From contig JAZSBZ010000066.1 in the NCBI GenBank assembly GCA_045602645.1, forward strand, positions 1-37,561: a stretch of 37,561 bases of DNA, in the 5' to 3' direction. Every line of letters starts with the position of its first letter. The stretch's first letter is position 1. Positions 1,622-8,620 of this stretch are shown one piece after another. The stretch is from Candidatus Scatovivens sp. (GTDB lineage Bacteria; Bacillota; Clostridia; TANB77; CAG-508). The notes under the pieces are model-generated. The model made no database searches. It saw only the letters and a list, made by a program, of their open reading frames with translations, and was not told the DNA's origin. The position numbers and the translations under genes were made by a program.

Positions 1622-2296
1622 ATGTTTAAGATTTTACTTGTTGAAGATAATAAGAATATAAGAAAATTAATGACAGCATATTTAAGAAAAAGTAGTTATG
1701 ATGTATATGAAGCTGAAAATGGGGAAGATGCATTAGATGTTTTAGATAGACAACATATAGATCTTATGATAAGCGATATAATGATGCCAAAAATGGATGG
1801 ATATGAGCTTACTAAAGAATTAAGAGATGCAGGATATACATTCCCAATACTTTTTGTTACTGCTAAAGATTCAATAGATGATAAAAGAGAAGGTTTCTTA
1901 TTAGGCGTTGATGACTATATGGTTAAACCAATAGATATGGATGAAATGATATTAAGGGTTGGTGTGCTTTTAAGAAGAGCTAATATAGTTAATCAGAGAA
2001 AATTGAAAATTAAAGATGTTGTTTTATCATATGATGAATATACTTTAGTAAAAGGTGATGAAGTTTATCAATTACCACAAAAAGAATTCCAACTTATATA
2101 TAAACTTTTAAGTTATCCAAATAAGATATTTACAAGACAAGAATTAATTGATGAAATTTGGGGATTAGAAAGTGATTCAGAGCAAAGAACTGTAGATGTA
2201 CATATAAAAAGATTAAGAGAAAAGTTTGAAAAATTTGAGGAATTTGAAATAGTTACAATTAGAGGAGTCGGCTATAAAGGAATAATTAAAAATTAG
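1622..2296 (+). CDS. OmpR-family response regulator (HssR-like)
   Basis: Receiver domain (LLVED, DIMMPKMDG, TAK, DDYMVKP) plus winged helix (RTVDVHIKRLREK, TIRGVGY); AGGAGG RBS. Confidence 0.95.
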   Translation: MFKILLVEDNKNIRKLMTAYLRKSSYDVYEAENGEDALDVLDRQHIDLMISDIMMPKMDGYELTKELRDAGYTFPILFVTAKDSIDDKREGFLLGVDDYMVKPIDMDEMILRVGVLLRRANIVNQRKLKIKDVVLSYDEYTLVKGDEVYQLPQKEFQLIYKLLSYPNKIFTRQELIDEIWGLESDSEQRTVDVHIKRLREKFEKFEEFEIVTIRGVGYKGIIKN

Positions 2297-2311
2297 ATTG
2301 GTAAGATAGTT

Positions 2312-3445
2312 ATGAGTAAAGAAAAAGAGAGAAAATTATCTGAAAAAGAAAATGAAAAAAATAGTAAAAAACCGAAAGTAAAATCACTATATAAATACAT
2401 GATTTTTGCACTTATAATTGTACTTATAATAATGTTTTTACTTACTAGCTTATATTTTAGATATGCAAGATATTATTTATTTGAAATGCTTCATGTACAA
2501 GGTATAGATTTTAGTTCTATAGATACTCAAAGAGTGGTTGGAGGTGTAATTGGAGCTGTTTTTGAAACAGTTATTCTAGCCGCTATTTTAGGTGTAGTTA
2601 TGATTCTTATTGTATTTAAGCATATTGTTGCACCAGTAAGGAAAATGACAGAAGCAACAAAGAAAGTTGCAAAAGGAGATTTTAAAGTTCAACTTGAAAA
2701 TGAAAATAGAAAAGATGAGTTTGGAGTTCTTACTAAAAATTTTAATAAAATGGTTAGAGAACTTGAAAGTAATGAGTATTTAAGTAAAGAATTTATGAGT
2801 AATGTATCTCATGAATTTAAAACTCCAATAGCATCAATCCAAGGATTTGCAAAATTATTAAAAGATAAACGTATAACAAATAAAGAAAAGGCAGAATATA
2901 TAGATATAATTATTGAAGAGTCAGAAAGACTAGCTAATTTATCTACTAGTATACAAAACTTAACAAAGATAGAAAACAAAAAAGAAATCTTTAAAAAAGA
3001 AAAAGTAGCGGTAGATGAACAAATAAGAAAATGTGTTGTTTTACTAAATTCTAAACTTGAAGAAAAGAATATTGAAATAGGTATGGATGAAGATAGAGAT
3101 GTTTTCGTTAATGCAAGTGAAGATATGTTACATCAAGTATGGATGAATTTGATAAATAATGCAATTAAATATACAGAAAAAGATGGAAGAATAGATTTAA
3201 TTATAGATGAATATGAGACTGAAGTTAGAGTAGAAGTTAAAGATAATGGAATTGGTATTAAAGAGGAAAACTTAAGTAAAATATTTGATAAATTCTATCA
3301 AGAAGATGAATCTCATTATTCAGAAGGAAGTGGACTTGGCCTTGCTATAGTAAAGAAAATAGTAGAGCTTCATAAAGGAAAGATTGAAGTAAAAAGTAAG
3401 CTAGGAGAAGGAACTTCGTTTATAGTTGTTATTCCAAAAGATTAA
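2312..3445 (+). CDS. Sensor histidine kinase (2 TM, HAMP, HisKA, HATPase)
   Basis: H box NVSHEFKTP, N box NLINNAIKY, G1 DNGIGI, G2 GSGLGLAIVK; adjacent to the response regulator. Confidence 0.95.
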   Translation: MSKEKERKLSEKENEKNSKKPKVKSLYKYMIFALIIVLIIMFLLTSLYFRYARYYLFEMLHVQGIDFSSIDTQRVVGGVIGAVFETVILAAILGVVMILIVFKHIVAPVRKMTEATKKVAKGDFKVQLENENRKDEFGVLTKNFNKMVRELESNEYLSKEFMSNVSHEFKTPIASIQGFAKLLKDKRITNKEKAEYIDIIIEESERLANLSTSIQNLTKIENKKEIFKKEKVAVDEQIRKCVVLLNSKLEEKNIEIGMDEDRDVFVNASEDMLHQVWMNLINNAIKYTEKDGRIDLIIDEYETEVRVEVKDNGIGIKEENLSKIFDKFYQEDESHYSEGSGLGLAIVKKIVELHKGKIEVKSKLGEGTSFIVVIPKD

Positions 3446-4560: not shown

Positions 4561-5656
4561 AGTAAAGAAGGAATTTGAAAAACAAAAAGATAATGAGGAA
4601 TTTAATAAAGAATATATTTATTATTTAAAACAATATGTTGGAAGACCAACACCGGTATATTATGCAGAAAATTTAAGCAAAAGCTTAGGTGGAGCTAAAA
4701 TCTATTTAAAAAGGGAAGATTTAAATCATACAGGTGCTCACAAAATAAACAATGCTATTGGCCAAATACTTCTTGCTAAAAAGATGGGAAAAACACATGT
4801 AATTGCAGAGACTGGAGCTGGGCAACATGGTGTAGCAACAGCAACTGTATGTAGCTTATTTGATATAAAATGCACAATATTTATGGGGAAAGAAGATATA
4901 AGAAGACAAAGAGTTAATGTAGAGAAAATGAAACTTTTAGGTGCTACAGTAAGAGAAGTAACTAGAGGTGAAGGTGTATTAAAAGATGCTGTAGATGATG
5001 CGTTTGAATTTTTTGTAGAAAATGATGATGTGTTTTACTTAATTGGATCTGCAGTAGGTCCTGCACCATATCCAGAAATGGTTAAACACTTTCAAAAGAT
5101 TATCGGGGAAGAAGCTAAAAAACAAGTAAAAGAGTTAGAAGGAAAATTACCTAAAGCAGTAATTGCTTGTGTAGGTGGTGGAAGTAATGCAATAGGGATG
5201 TTTACTGATTTTGTTAAAGAAGAAAATGTTAAATTATATGGAATAGAAGGAGCAGGTCTTGGAATAGAAACAGGAAAACATGCGGCAAGTATGCAAAATA
5301 ATACGATTGGAATTATGCATGGAATGAAAACTTATATTATGCAAGATAAAGATGGAAATGTAAAAGATGCATATTCAATTTCAGCAGGACTTGATTATCC
5401 AGGTATTGGGCCAGAACATGCATATTTATCAAGTATAGGTAGAGTAAAATATGATTCAATTACTGATAAGGAAGCAGTAAATGCCTTTAAAGCATTAACA
5501 AGATATGAAGGAATTATTCCAGCATTAGAGTCTAGCCATGCGGTAGCATATAGTATGAAAATAGCAAAAGAATATGATAAAGATGATATTATTTTAGTTA
5601 ATTTATCTGGAAGAGGCGATAAAGATATTGAGCAAATTTTATCTTTAGAAGATTAA
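4496..5656 (+). CDS. trpB: Tryptophan synthase beta chain (stand-alone)
   Basis: PLP-lysine motif [51 protein letters not shown]. The probable start is ATG 4496 after AAGGAG. Confidence 0.97.
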
Positions 5657-6021
5657 TATAACTTTTGTAAATTAGAAATAAGGATAAGTAAATTTTTTGG
5701 AGTAATGTAGATATAATCAAAGTCTAGTTTAAACACGGCTGGAAAATTAGTTTTAAATTTATCGAGGTTTAATCTTGTAAAAAGATTTTCTATATTTTTG
5801 ATAATTTGTTTTTCAGGTTTATTAAAATTTTTACTAGTTAAAGAGCATAAATCTATTAGCTTAATTTCATCGAGATTAAATTCTGAAGAGTTTTTAATTA
5901 AATCTCTATAATAGATATACCCCTTAGAGCAAATATTAAATCCTAGTCGATTTAAAATAGAATCAATATTTAAAAAATTAAATAATTGTTTATCTTCAGT
6001 ACAACTATTAATTTTTTCCAT
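5653..6021 (-). CDS. Stand-alone Spo0A C-terminal (DNA-binding)-like domain protein
   Basis: [21 protein letters not shown] resembles Spo0A_C IIHEIGVPAHIKGYxYLREAI, followed by an HTH-like segment and PKNLLILIS. Start ATG 6021 after AGGAGGT. No receiver domain. Confidence 0.65.
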
Positions 6022-6081
6022 ATTGTAACCTCCTGATGAGTATAATTTACACGAAATAAAAGAAAACATCAAATTAAAAGT

Positions 6082-6223
6082 GTTGCGCATCGCGCGACAA
6101 AAATAGAGTATAAAAGTTGCATTGTATGCAACAAAAATGAAAGGAATCTTAAAAGTACAAATAAATTAAAAAAGAAAAAGAAGTAAAAATTAAAAAATCA
6201 GAAAAAGTTGATTTTTACGCAAC
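6082..6223. promoter_or_regulatory. Operator cluster A: three 17-bp GTTG-N9-CAAC-type sites
   Basis: GTTGCGCATCGCGCGAC (6082-6098), GTTGCATTGTATGCAAC (6116-6132), GTTGATTTTTACGCAAC (6207-6223). Confidence 0.75.
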
Positions 6224-6246
6224 AAAGCCGGCTATTAGCCGGCTTT
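6224..6246 (-). terminator. Terminator of 6258..6998
   Basis: AAAGCCGGCTA-t-TAGCCGGCTTT inverted repeat just past the stop codon. Confidence 0.75.
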
Positions 6247-6257
6247 AATGTTTTTAT

Positions 6258-6998
6258 TTATTTTTTTGATTCTTTATTATTAATTATTCTAAAAGATTTG
6301 TAATCTTCTTCAGAATATGTTTTCATATCTTCTTTTGAAAGACAGTCATATGTATAAGTTAATTTTTCTCTTGTTTTAAGTACTTCTACATCATCTCTTA
6401 CAGTATATTCTTCTCTACATACAATACATCCAGTTTCATGATCTACGTAGTAGTAATCAACTTCGTTATGATCTTCATAGTAAGAAGTAAATGAAATTAA
6501 GAAACATCTTGTTTCTTCATAAAATTCAATTCCATGATATTCATAGTTGTATAAATTTTCATTTGCAGCATGTTTTCTGATATATGTATCAAAGTATATT
6601 GAAAAGTTATCATAGCAATAATCAAAGAAAATATCATCAATAGAGACGGTATTATTATCAATGTTTACTGTAACTTGAGTATTGCTTGAAAAATCAGTAT
6701 ATGTTTTTTCTACTATATTTCCAATATCGTTATATCCGTCTACGTATAAGTTATCATCTAATCTGTATATTTCTGCAACAGTAAATGTTTCGTCAAGTTC
6801 AGAATCATACATTTCATATTTTGCTAAATAGTTATTAGAAATATGTTCTGGGTTTTGAATTTTTTCAAGAACAATTCCTAAAGTATTCCTTTGAATTGTA
6901 AAAAAATGAATAGCATTGTTAAACAGTATATATAAAATCCCTATACCAACAGCGGCTATTATTAGAAATGAAAGTATACTTGCTAATTTCTTTTTCAT
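6258..6998 (-). CDS. Membrane-anchored extracellular hypothetical protein (Tyr/acidic, beta-rich)
   Basis: MKKK plus an N-terminal hydrophobic helix; GGAGGT RBS before ATG 6998. Confidence 0.75.
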   Translation of the reverse strand: MKKKLASILSFLIIAAVGIGILYILFNNAIHFFTIQRNTLGIVLEKIQNPEHISNNYLAKYEMYDSELDETFTVAEIYRLDDNLYVDGYNDIGNIVEKTYTDFSSNTQVTVNIDNNTVSIDDIFFDYCYDNFSIYFDTYIRKHAANENLYNYEYHGIEFYEETRCFLISFTSYYEDHNEVDYYYVDHETGCIVCREEYTVRDDVEVLKTREKLTYTYDCLSKEDMKTYSEEDYKSFRIINNKESKK

Positions 6999-7109
6999 AA
7001 GTACCTCCATAAGAGTAAATCTATAATAATGGTATTAATAAATTAAGAAAAAGTCAATGTTATAAAGGATAAATAAAAGATGATTTATGAAATACTTTTT
7101 GATTATTAA

Positions 7110-7140
7110 AAAGAAAAAGCGCCGGTAACCCAGCGCCTTT
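7110..7140 (-). terminator. Terminator of the small-peptide transcript
   Basis: Minus strand GCGCTGG-gtta-CCGGCGC followed by TTTTTCTTTT. Confidence 0.75.
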
Positions 7141-7171
7141 GGAGTTTTTAGATAAAAAATAATTCAAACTT

Positions 7172-7240
7172 TTATGCGATATGTCCATCGATAGAATAAC
7201 ATGCAACAGATCCATCAATGCATGGAAAAATATTTTTCAT
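7172..7240 (-). CDS. 22-aa peptide MKNIFPCIDGSVACYSIDGHIA (absent from the ORF track)
   Basis: AAAGGAG RBS, ATG 7240, TAA 7172-7174, internal IDGxxA repeat, its own promoter and terminator. Confidence 0.6.
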   Translation of the reverse strand: MKNIFPCIDGSVACYSIDGHIA

Positions 7241-7266
7241 TTGTTCTTTTCTCCTTTCATTAGATT

Positions 7267-7444
7267 CATTAAAGTGCGATTACTTGTTTTTAGTTCAAAC
7301 GCATCTTTATGAATGCATAAGGAGATAAGAATCTCAAGTAATATAAAATCCAGGCACTCACGATTGCCTGGAAAATTGTTTTTCAAGGCTTCGCTAGCGC
7401 GTCTGGAGTATACTTGACTATAAACTCCATATATATCTTTAATG
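7267..7444 (-). ncRNA. Unassigned multi-branched structured RNA (5' leader of the 22-aa peptide)
   Basis: Closing stem CATTAAAG/CTTTAATG. Hairpins at 7404-7429 and 7349-7372 (TCCAGGCA/TGCCTGGA). ATTACTTG/CAAGTAAT stem at 7279-7342 encloses two small hairpins. A TTGATT-17-TAAACT promoter lies just upstream. Confidence 0.5.
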
Positions 7445-7491
7445 TGTAACAAGAGTTTATCAAAATAAAATTATAAAATCAAAATTAAAGC

Positions 7492-7634
7492 GTTGCGCAT
7501 TAGGAAACCAATAGTTGCTTAAAATGCAACAAAATAGAGGAAAAGACTTGAAAAATAAGGATAAAGGTGATAAAATGTTTATGTTAACTTTAATATAATT
7601 ACTTAATTCATATAAACGTTGATTTTTACGCAAC
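7492..7634. promoter_or_regulatory. Operator cluster B and divergent promoters of the XRE gene and the peptide transcript
   Basis: GTTGCGCATTAGGAAAC (7492-7508), GTTGCTTAAAATGCAAC (7514-7530), GTTGATTTTTACGCAAC (7618-7634). XRE promoter TTGAAA (7548), 17 nt, TAAAAT (7571). Confidence 0.75.
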
Positions 7635-7651
7635 GATTTTTGGAGGTGGCT

Positions 7652-8398
7652 ATGCCAGATAAAAAGACAAGTATTTATTATGATGTTGGCGAAAGAATAA
7701 GATTTTATAGAAAACTAAAGAATTTATCGTTAAGTAAATTTGGAAATATGATAGGAAAGACTAAATCTACAGTATGTAGATATGAGACTAATGAAATCTG
7801 TCCAGATGTTATAACACTTTGTGAGATATGTTCTGCACTAGAGATATCAGTTAGTGAATTTTTAGATGAAAATAAAAGTGCTGCAACAGAATATAGCATT
7901 AATCCATTTGGAGAAAATGAGCTTTATTTATACTATATTGGTTTTAGTAAAAAACTAGTTGTATCAAAATTAGAGATTACTTTAATAGATGGAGTTTATA
8001 AGGTTGTATTAAAAAATGCTATTAATAATTCTATTTCAGAAAGAGATTCATACCATTATGATGGTAAAATGGAATCAAACGGAATAGTAACATTCTTTAA
8101 TTTATCTAATTCATTTAATAATAAGAAATTTGAAAAGATACAAATAACAATAAATAACCAATTCGCTGAAAATGGATTCTATTATGGTTCAATAAGTGCG
8201 ACTGGTAATGATAACTTATCTACAAATAGAAAATGTATGATATGCTCTAAGAAAACAGAAGACTTATCAAAAGAGCAAAGAAAGCAAATATTTGAAAAGT
8301 TAAAAATATCTAAAAAAGAAATAGATCAAATAAAGAAAAATTACTACTGGGATCCAATTATAAGAAACGAAGAAGATTATTCGGTGGTAGTAGAATAA
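7652..8398 (+). CDS. XRE-family HTH regulator with an unknown ~170-aa C-terminal domain
   Basis: VGERIRFYRKLKNLSLSKFGNMIGKTKSTVCRYETNEICPD is a Cro/C1 HTH; GGAGGTGG RBS before ATG 7652. Confidence 0.9.
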   Translation: MPDKKTSIYYDVGERIRFYRKLKNLSLSKFGNMIGKTKSTVCRYETNEICPDVITLCEICSALEISVSEFLDENKSAATEYSINPFGENELYLYYIGFSKKLVVSKLEITLIDGVYKVVLKNAINNSISERDSYHYDGKMESNGIVTFFNLSNSFNNKKFEKIQITINNQFAENGFYYGSISATGNDNLSTNRKCMICSKKTEDLSKEQRKQIFEKLKISKKEIDQIKKNYYWDPIIRNEEDYSVVVE

Positions 8399-8620
8399 TA
8401 AAAGTAAATATGAAAATAATTAATTTTAAGAGGGAAGCTAGAAATAGCTTCTCTTTTTTAATTTTTAAAACAAATGTATGAGGGTTTTTAATGGTAAAAA
8501 AGTGATTTTATAGAGTTTTAAATGCTTTTAAGGGAATAATGAATTCTTTTTAAAATAGCGTGCTAGTATGTAGTCAGTTCGAACAAACAAACACTTTTCT
8601 AGAAAAGAAAAAGGAGGGTT

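Follow-up and report, generated by a model that had tools for sequence, protein, structure and literature searches.

A short ORF within a predicted structured RNA

The stretch of DNA analysed here (the window) comprises 37,561 nt of contig JAZSBZ010000066.1 (assembly GCA_045602645.1) from Candidatus Scatovivens sp., and contains on its reverse strand a 22-codon open reading frame (ORF), divergent from an XRE-family regulator gene and located in the 3′ part of a predicted structured RNA. An earlier note on this DNA, made from the sequence without database searches, had pointed out the ORF at 7172..7240 with its Shine-Dalgarno (SD) sequence, terminator and divergent XRE gene, all of which were confirmed in the sequence, and had left the ~330-nt structured RNA enclosing the ORF unremarked. 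The features of the locus are as follows.

7172..7240, reverse strand: short ORF, 22 codons plus stop, translation MKNIFPCIDGSVACYSIDGHIA, with homologous ORFs in the related loci L089 and L002
7251..7257, reverse strand: SD sequence AAAGGAG (GGAG core 7251..7254), 10 nt 5′ of the ATG
7105..7140, reverse strand: terminator T2 (hairpin 7140..7115), an 11-bp stem with 6 G-C pairs and a 4-nt loop, then a U-run
7454..7482, reverse strand: predicted RNA promoter, −35 TTGATT (7482..7477), 17-nt spacer, TG-extended −10 TAAACT (7459..7454)
7349..7372, reverse strand: hairpin T1, CCAGGCA / loop AUCGUGAG / UGCCUGG, between promoter and ORF
7437..7444, reverse strand: 5′ strand CAUUAAAG of a long-range helix predicted by RNAalifold
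7267..7274, reverse strand: 3′ strand CUUUAAUG of the same predicted helix (RNAalifold), just 5′ of the SD
7319..7335, reverse strand: predicted hairpin GAGAU-UCUU-AUCUC over an anti-SD sequence, UCUCCUU (7325..7319)
7652..8398, forward strand: XRE-family gene, 248 aa, Pfam HTH_3 (residues ~10–78)

The ORF is located 412 nt from the divergent XRE start, and its product contains the tripeptide IDG twice, at codons 8–10 and 17–19. With 55 ORFs of ≥20 aa inside 5 kb, a 22-codon ORF is unremarkable by itself, and a repeated tripeptide was found in 136 of the 1559 stop-free 22-mers and in 13/121 ATG-initiated ORFs of 18–30 aa in this window (9–11%). The ORF alone and the internal repeat alone are thus no more than expected by chance, and the case for the ORF rests on comparison with relatives. 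DNA contigs from three runs contained no variant within the ORF, so that population data gave no ratio of non-synonymous to synonymous changes (dN/dS). The grand average of hydropathy (GRAVY) of the window peptide is 0.57, and its hydropathy profile shows no export signal and no hydrophobic or transmembrane-like segment, in agreement with the view of the earlier note that there is no signal peptide and too little hydrophobicity for a type I toxin; homologues range from −0.06 to −1.9, with some consisting of only 11 hydrophilic residues (GRAVY −1.9). An NCBIfam scan with the window peptide gave zero matches. The T2 stem begins 31 nt past the ORF, giving the arrangement of an SD-led ORF ahead of a terminator that is found in leader-peptide attenuators, and T2 equivalents were found in both L089 and L002. 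Three metagenome contigs (run X18) matched positions 7225..7261 only, covering the ORF start and SD with 3–5 differences before continuing in unrelated sequence, and this block is apparently shared with other elements of the same community.

Relatives of the XRE protein are scarce, with 19 matches among 5.8 billion proteins, and proteins P0002–P0014 are 53–81% identical to the XRE protein of the window. Scanning genome contigs with the single XRE protein detected nothing, a profile scan of genome contigs detected only XRE relatives of ≤37% identity, and a metagenome scan gave three loci, of which only L089 was close. In this metagenome locus (XRE protein 81% identical), an SD, the 22-codon ORF MRNIFPQIDGSIVKNIDGNLIK and a terminator are found with matching strand and distance, with both IDG tripeptides kept and an in-frame 3-nt indel between them. 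The intergenic DNA of L002 (genome G014) is 67% identical to that of the window, and its short ORF, MSKIYEKRIDG, stops straight after its sole IDG and is followed by a terminator, while its XRE homologue shows 45–47% identity over the aligned parts (tblastn with the window protein as query). The L002 XRE homologue (1933..2665, forward strand) is split into two overlapping frames of 82 aa and 215 aa, reflecting either a frameshift or an assembly error, with RNA, short ORF and terminator intact. These three sequences make up the peptide class of the window (class A, IDG). The earlier note had listed two Cys residues as a feature of the peptide, but these are not conserved, being replaced by Q and K/N in L089 and both absent from L002, which ends ahead of the second Cys position. 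Its proposed IDGxxA repeat is likewise reduced to IDG, with 'xxA' lost along with the Cys; the repeat as such, from which the note argued for selection, is at chance level.

The dedicated promoter proposed in the earlier note was not found directly upstream of the ORF by a consensus scan, but alignments revealed a conserved promoter ~207 nt upstream, which gives the ORF a long structured leader. This promoter, which was read from the alignments and is under the threshold of the consensus promoter scan, has the same hexamers in L089, reads TTGAAA-17-TGGTAAAAT in L002, and corresponds to TTGATT-17-TGnTATAAT in 22 loci of peptide class D (see below). The predicted RNA starts at ~7447 and ends at ~7105, and has a minimum free energy (MFE) of −95.6 kcal/mol (z = −6.1), with 0/100 shuffles folding as well. 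In L089 the T1 stem has an A:U in place of a G:C pair, a compensatory change, and paralogs contain many further compensatory variants; the hairpin is followed by a U-run in the window and by none in L089. The eight pairs of the long-range helix CAUUAAAG:CUUUAAUG are invariant in all three class A sequences and hence provide no covariation, whereas class D has a different long-range helix, GAAUGG:CCAUUC, which does covary. The anti-SD UCUCCUU pairs with the SD region in the MFE fold, while the alifold consensus favours the local hairpin, with one compensatory pair in three sequences. Sequestration of the SD, predicted here for the window, and long-range 5′–3′ pairing, predicted for classes A and D, are features shared with type I toxin mRNAs such as those of the hok and fst types.

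In class A, no structure competing with the T2 stem appears in the MFE fold or in the alifold consensus, although no search was aimed at a complement of the T2 arms. Rfam gave no matches at the gathering score in the window and 17 related loci (best sub-threshold score 24.9 bits versus a cut-off of 49.9), and no antisense promoter, overlapping partner RNA or leader countertranscript was identified at the locus. In a gut metatranscriptome run (X20), the region 7000..8400 was represented by one contig of 242 nt, spanning 7183..7424 with 0 differences at a depth of 2.2; it covers leader and ORF and not the XRE gene, its strand is undefined, and carry-over of DNA is possible. No consistent pattern across classes was seen for CsrA-type GGA sites, Dcm-like CCWGG repeats or an internal promoter in the conserved ACTTnAnnGAAT block preceding the SD, all of which were considered and dropped.

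Short ORFs beside XRE paralogs and their coding constraint

A profile of the XRE protein detected 69 places, distributed over 35 of 75 species genomes in the genus (at most six in one genome); 64 loci were assessable after excluding five with <300 nt of upstream sequence. The earlier note had proposed a search for small ORFs near XRE homologs, and an ATG-initiated short ORF with an SD was indeed found at the corresponding place in 58/64 paralog loci, showing that the ORF is conserved. The family ORFs have 11 to ~59 codons and are located on the opposite strand at 270–440 nt from the XRE start, with the exception of L094, where a hydrophobic 37-codon ORF is inserted and the distance is 632 nt. 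The remaining six loci (L101, L103, L104, L119, L139 and L140) have the XRE protein with its barrel domain (described below) and lack the module. In L101 and L103, where the RNA/ORF module is absent, tRNA-gene-like sequences were recognised by eye ~170–420 nt upstream of the XRE start, and these tRNA-abutting copies may mark an element end or integration site.

The short ORFs were grouped into five peptide classes:

Class A, IDG: the window, L089 and L002
Class B, IDE: MDILRIDEVIDEKIDE
Class C, xPG: MTLSVKNFPGFPGFPGSPVKA; M..ISLGIPGGYPIY; MKPQxEKGFPD; others
Class D, GGR: MKFSIYYGGRMSW, ~20 loci
Class E, FPRW: MKxSKxxVxAFPRWRWRLL...

The peptide classes follow the clades of the XRE protein. 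They are also homologous to each other, since the MKNIF...DG of the window (class A) matches MKNIFLDGRLSRW of L108 (class D), with an identical MKNIF and an in-frame 6-nt indel before DG. Peptide cores are shared by the paralogs of one genome while their RNA loops differ, and specificity therefore seems not to be contained in the peptide.

An SD-like 4-mer is present 7–13 nt before the ATG in 59/59 family ORFs, in classes otherwise of little sequence similarity, and the ATG-to-CGG spacing in the 39 GGR and FPRW loci (classes D and E) is 21, 24, 27, 33, 36 or 39 nt, all multiples of three. The type of constraint differs between the classes. Within class C, the FPGFPGFPG pair L096/L098 has a ratio of synonymous to non-synonymous changes of 4:1 in frame 0, versus 0:5 and 1:4 in the other frames, and the ISLGIPGGYPIY pair L099/L100 has 3:4 versus 0:7 and 0:6, with its three synonymous changes in the conserved part and all four non-synonymous changes in the first six codons. 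Such a synonymous excess is absent from the pairs L134/L136 (0:8) and L120/L149 (0:17) of classes D and E, and in the GGR core the third codon positions have the lowest entropy (0.43, versus 0.95 at first positions), which rises over codons 15–20 to 1.55–1.59, similar to the non-coding flank (1.54). Nucleotide conservation of the GGR class extends beyond some stop codons, and for four codons L121 has the same nucleotide motif in a frame different from that of L116/L117, the frameshift being compensated within 12 nt. Stop positions are variable (11 to ~59 codons); in classes A–C the ORF ends well ahead of T2, while some other ORFs read through T2, and the hydrophobic tails of some FPRW-class ORFs are variable and located beyond T2.

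The core Arg codon in the 39 class D/E ORFs (e.g. L111 and L148) is always CGG, with one or two such codons per ORF, after which come further codons ending in G or C. In the long ORFs of the genome containing the window (G000), CGG represents 70 of 11,230 Arg codons (0.6%), the class D/E loci being located in other genomes, and tRNA-Arg(CCG) was not among the 30 tRNAs detected in the 87%-complete G000 assembly, which does not prove its absence. The kept frame and the conserved rare G/C-ending codons would fit with selection for slow decoding. Recurrence of the ORF beside XRE paralogs and the synonymous-only cores of some classes agree with the core idea of the earlier note, a genuine small gene that is selected for and linked to the XRE gene. 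Comparison of sequences establishes the ORF, its conserved frame and the conserved RNA elements, and it is quite probable that the ORF is a real, translated and conserved element of a genetic switch.

The XRE protein, the mobilizable island and complementary RNA loops

The AlphaFold model of the XRE protein (predicted local distance difference test score 83) consists of a helix-turn-helix (HTH) domain, an 8-strand up-and-down β-barrel (residues ~83–201) and two C-terminal helices. The barrel matched de novo ligand-binding barrels (Z 10.2–10.3), shwanavidin (3szh, Z 9.0) and streptavidin with Strep-tag peptide (6qsy, Z 8.9), a range only moderately above the background of the fold search, and its polar and aromatic residues are nearly invariant among 37 homologues. 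Matches to PrgX (2aw6) and ComR (5jub) were restricted to the HTH (residues 9–76). Pfam and NCBIfam recognised the HTH and not the barrel, and the ESM Atlas returned only unnamed clusters for the barrel part, with scores ≤0.87. Prediction of a complex between XRE residues 80–248 (37-row alignment) and the 22-aa peptide scored 0.01 against a mark of 0.32, with chains of <30 residues lying outside the calibration of this score, and the result speaks neither for nor against binding.

The surroundings of the locus correspond to a small mobilizable island with RadC-DUF3846, Mob_Pre relaxase, NUDIX and Fic genes and, on the other side, a Spo0A_C-like gene, in a host genome of 1.62 Mb with 28.7% G+C that is 87% complete. 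No integrase was found up to 24.5 kb, and a 91-aa ORF in the island resembles sigma-70 region 4 by eye, without a Pfam or NCBIfam match. No peptide-modifying enzyme was recognised by Pfam among 15 neighbouring products of the window (the neighbours of related loci being outside that scan), in line with the statement in the earlier note that no maturase is adjacent, and the same scan revealed no peptide transporter or processing gene nearby. The genes and repeats flanking the RNA are:

5653..6021, reverse strand: gene of a Spo0A_C-like small DNA-binding protein, the usual downstream neighbour of the RNA module in paralogs
6258..7010, reverse strand: gene of a 250-aa protein outside all known families, membrane-anchored at its N terminus, located between T2 and the Spo0A_C-like gene
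7514..7530, no strand: palindrome GTTGCA-N5-GCAAC, a candidate operator-like site between both promoters, with a similar one upstream of the Spo0A_C-like gene
7617..7635, no strand: inverted repeat CGTTG-N9-CAACG, beside the XRE ribosome-binding site

At most loci the RNA module is followed by a gene for a protein of ~120 aa, in which Spo0A_C (PF08769) was above the cut-off in five of the nine copies scanned (the window copy has E = 0.09), and this is the sole 100–160 aa gene recurring on the ORF strand of the paralog loci examined. It has its own conserved promoter. In the window it is separated from the RNA by the 250-aa gene, which has its own promoter-like site at 7057..7029 and looks like an insertion, as the paralog loci examined lack it at that place. 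Motifs preceding the Spo0A_C-like gene at ~6209..6224, ~6111..6127 and ~6080..6100 (reverse strand) repeat those at 7617..7635, 7514..7530 and ~7491..7500, and include TTGCGTAAAAATCAAC, GTTGCA-N5-TGCAAC and ATGCGCAAC; the second copy of the CGTTG-N9-CAACG repeat is at ~6209..6224 in the window, and is located after T2 in L089 and L002. Since these operator-like motifs and a similar promoter recur upstream of both, the RNA and the Spo0A_C-like gene may be co-regulated.

Classes C and D have a hairpin (hairpin 2) located past a second promoter and before the Spo0A_C-like gene, whose loop is complementary to that of T1, and the two loops co-vary. The longest loop complement averaged 7.0 nt within the same locus versus 4.1 nt for mismatched loci, and reached ≥8 nt in 23/58 versus 7/540 combinations. 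The loop pairs include UUGCGAG/CUCGCAA, UUGAGAG/CUCUCAA and UUACGAC/GUCGUAA, with the close paralogs L100 and L122 differing at two positions on each side, and the stems of hairpin 2 likewise co-vary (by eye). For example, L118 has the T1 loop UUGAGAG and a downstream loop CUCUCAA ~160 nt after the ORF start. Complementarity was found in L099, L100, L122, L106–L109, L108–L118, L121, L129–L144 and L154–L159, and paralogs in the same genome differ in their loop pairs, making the T1 and hairpin-2 loops a candidate family of orthogonal kissing-loop riboregulators. Classes A, B and E lack such a partner, none was detected for the window, L089 or L093, and a search of the window for T1-loop targets gave 15 matches versus 14.6 expected and 20 versus 30.7 expected, which is at chance level.

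Interpretation of the module and comparison with known systems

We tentatively favour the interpretation that the short ORF is a translated regulatory ORF of the leader type, in which transit or pausing of the ribosome sets the state of the RNA. An RNA consisting of the ~207-nt leader with T1, the SD, the 22 codons and T2 would be transcribed from the promoter at 7482..7454, divergently from the XRE repressor gene, and would belong to the regulatory switch of the mobilizable island (RadC-DUF3846, Mob_Pre relaxase), with a Spo0A_C-type regulator usually encoded downstream. The upstream anti-SD may mask the ribosome-binding site of the ORF. Once this is open, ribosomes would meet a short, hard-to-translate motif 7–14 codons in: D-G in the window, either P-G or G-G in further classes, and for the largest classes clustered rare codons ending in G or C, CGG among them. 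Where the ribosome stands would then decide which alternative RNA fold persists, and through this the activity or stability of the RNA, with the peptide being largely a by-product; translation itself, pausing at the motif and the effect on the RNA are what we infer here. Such a cis-acting role is favoured because it is the sole explanation that covers the amino-acid constraint of class C and the codon constraint of classes D and E as well as the free tails, the tandem motifs and the shared cores with differing loops. The constraint extends only from the start to the motif, and its differing kind by class is as expected if slowness were selected. Also in favour of this role are the initiation signals and frame kept across the family, the strong structure of the RNA with its alternative predicted folds and compensatory T1 change, and the metatranscriptome contig over leader and ORF that leaves the XRE gene uncovered.

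Several points weigh against this interpretation. Class A has no rare codons, and its three sequences give little power to separate amino-acid from nucleotide constraint, while to our knowledge D-G is not an established arrest motif. Both translation and pausing are predicted from aligned sequences. With a strong T2 and no antiterminator found to overlap the ORF, the ribosome has no evident regulated output in class A, no T1-loop target was found in the window, and the RNA contig has a depth of only 2.2 and an undefined strand, with possible DNA carry-over. The 12 conserved C-terminal residues in one xPG class would suit a functional peptide equally well. Finally, leader-like ORFs can be untranslated, as for orf12 of Tn916, long assumed to be a leader ORF, for which the preprint 10.1101/2021.03.24.436905 reports that a toeprint was lacking and that loss of the start codon made no difference.

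Alternatively, the peptide may be the functional product and a ligand of the avidin-like barrel of the XRE protein, serving as an intracellular anti-repressor or co-repressor or as a released leaderless pheromone, which we regard as possible, albeit doubtful. The repeated turn motifs (IDG twice, IDE three times, FPG three times) would in that case engage at least two barrels of a repressor oligomer; P-G, D-G and G-G are classical β-turn pairs. For the class of the window, this explanation fits at least as well as the cis-acting one, given the apparently discrete transcript, the strong terminator, the lack of a detected antiterminator and the retention of both IDG. It also agrees with the ligand-binding type of the barrel (Z 8.9–10.3) and its nearly invariant residues, with the co-inheritance of ORF and XRE gene at 58/64 loci and the tracking of XRE clades by peptide classes, and with ORFs that stop well short of T2 in classes A–C. 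In the xPG classes selection is at the amino-acid level, and one of these has a variable N-terminal and a conserved C-terminal part, resembling a pro-peptide. The layout is furthermore akin to that of prgX/prgQ (PMC7117660). For the signalling peptide suggested in the earlier note, a small ORF does adjoin a regulator gene, but there is no export segment, the putative receptor combines an HTH with a β-barrel and is not of the RRNPP type with tetratricopeptide repeats (TPR), and the largest classes are constrained at the codon or nucleotide level. A ligand role is also difficult to reconcile with homologues of 11 hydrophilic residues, with the GGR and FPRW ORFs, which lack a synonymous excess (0:8 and 0:17), are most conserved at third positions and in several cases would be non-stop if T2 terminates, with the shared peptide core of same-genome paralogs, which would cross-talk, and with the six XRE-barrel copies without module and the lack of a transporter or processing gene nearby. 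The broader proposal, that leaderless peptides of 11–22 residues with one to three β-turn motifs are the cognate ligands of XRE barrels and define non-RRNPP peptide-sensing repressors on mobile elements, appears rather unlikely; if true, these would be the smallest known anti-repressors or pheromones, with several peptide classes in one genus and a second, orthogonal layer of RNA kissing loops.

A purely non-coding riboregulator, in which the SD-like purine tract is a helix strand and the ATG frame is incidental, would explain the strong structure with covarying helices, the covarying T1-loop partner of classes C and D, and the conservation of the GGR class at the nucleotide level, past some stops and in another frame in L121. 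ORFs of 11–22 codons are, moreover, expected by chance in AT-rich DNA, and the Tn916 'leader ORF' is apparently untranslated. We nevertheless consider this improbable, as the ATG and SD spacing is kept in 59/59 ORFs, all ATG-to-motif indels are multiples of three, the L121 frameshift is compensated within 12 nt, synonymous-only change in the FPG and ISLGIPGGYPIY cores is seen in frame 0 and in neither other frame, and MKNIF is shared by the window and L108, with an in-frame 6-nt indel after it. The predicted SD sequestration and long-range 5′–3′ pairing, on a mobile element, could also indicate a type I toxin mRNA kept under a folded 5′ leader and a partner RNA. This is very improbable, as the peptides lack a transmembrane-like stretch (GRAVY 0.57 in the window and −0.06 to −1.9 in homologues, some of just 11 hydrophilic residues), neither an antisense promoter nor a partner RNA overlapping the locus was identified, and the hydrophobic tails of the FPRW class are variable and beyond T2. 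The earlier note had also suggested a RiPP-like precursor, and a precursor of a ribosomally synthesised and post-translationally modified peptide (RiPP), with modified or cyclised Cys, would fit with the short product, two Cys and internal repeat. The replacement of both Cys in L089 and their absence from L002 already contradict this, and with no peptide-modifying enzyme recognised by Pfam among the 15 neighbours, no NCBIfam match, and a Spo0A_C-like regulator as the recurrent same-strand neighbour among genes of 100–160 aa, it is extremely improbable. The RiPP and type I toxin readings thus fail on their own defining features and are not supported.

In layout and logic the locus appears closest to prgX/prgQ of pCF10 and also resembles leader-ORF attenuators, but is a member of neither, since sensor domain, peptide chemistry and RNA differ and there is no sequence relationship. 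Like prgX/prgQ of the Enterococcus faecalis plasmid pCF10 and traA/iad of pAD1, it combines an HTH repressor with a divergent RNA of a few hundred nt containing a ~22-codon ORF and an end terminator, on a mobile element with regulator or transfer genes downstream and an RNA-RNA interaction as second layer of control. In PrgX the peptide-binding domain is all-helical, and the peptides of pCF10 and pAD1 are exported, hydrophobic molecules resembling signal peptides. The peptides described here are not hydrophobic, the promoters are back-to-back, no countertranscript overlapping the leader was identified, and sequence similarity is absent. PrgX is moreover described as an RRNPP protein in the review PMC7117660, whereas the XRE protein has an 8-strand β-barrel; the same review describes the pCF10 Qs RNA as 380 nt long and ending at the IRS1 terminator, together with Anti-Q, and its references include one that presents prgQ as the gene of the inhibitor peptide iCF10.

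With leader-peptide attenuators (erm, cat, amino-acid operon leaders and the proposed orf12 of tet(M)/Tn916), the locus shares an SD-led ORF in a structured leader before a terminator, constraint on the first ~10–14 codons, tandem regulatory codons (IDG twice, IDE three times, FPG three times, CGG twice) and rare codons in the largest classes. For Tn916, the preprint 10.1101/2021.03.24.436905 describes the idea of rare aminoacyl-tRNAs, with a leader ORF that is probably untranslated. The module differs from attenuators in that no T2 antiterminator overlapping the ORF was found in class A, that no antibiotic-resistance or biosynthetic gene is located downstream, and that in the window, L089 and L002 the RNA has the appearance of a discrete transcript, with a promoter region of its own coming after it. 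The dual-function small RNAs RNAIII/hld, SR1/SR1P and SgrS/SgrT likewise combine a base-pairing domain (here the T1 loop, with a partner in classes C and D) and a short ORF in one structured RNA, but have no sequence or Rfam relationship with the module, and no base-pairing target was found for class A. Pairs of the RRNPP/Rgg type (Rgg/SHP, ComR/ComS, RopB/SIP and AimR/AimP) are similar in having a small ORF beside an XRE-type HTH regulator with a C-terminal sensor, and in peptide classes that diversify with the regulator. They differ in their TPR sensor, in place of which a barrel is found here, in the export features absent from the module, and in peptide conservation, which is N-proximal in most peptides described here and not C-terminal.

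Activation switches of mobile elements are known in detail only for a few Gram-positive plasmids, integrative and conjugative elements, and phages. The combination of a barrel-sensor XRE repressor, a structured RNA with a conserved short ORF and a Spo0A_C-type regulator is not described in the literature and databases searched, and a full-text literature search, with subscription journals outside its coverage, gave no paper on such a module. The element was seen in animal-gut metagenomes of at least 14 studies, and within one uncultured genus of the gut the module is common. Its many paralogs provide a natural series of orthogonal variants, which makes it testable whether short ORFs in regulatory RNAs act via their peptide or via the act of translation, and how paralogous switches in the same cell avoid cross-talk.

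Outside the genus, viral contigs and plasmids contained HTH-only matches to the XRE protein and nothing more. Among 54 distant full-length XRE loci of other genera, a crude hairpin-plus-ORF rule, uncalibrated for false positives, was positive in 12, of which only L009, L018 and L031 look related. The first 30 residues of the XRE protein of L009 are identical to those of the genus locus L094, and both loci have a very hydrophobic 37-codon ORF, MIESILLETICLLSFGLIAVTFVAIALIITLVIFLSK, on the opposite strand between XRE gene and RNA module at 166–280 nt from the XRE start, which looks like a type I toxin. In nine further loci of other genera (L041, L060, L066, L069, L071–L073, L079 and L080), an overlapping pair of short ORFs is located ~430–460 nt upstream of XRE-type genes, which match the XRE protein in the HTH only except in L041, L069 and L079. 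These pairs encode peptides of two types, MGGGYGICNPGCGY and MQIWNLQLRTL, and may represent a different conserved RNA or short-ORF module.

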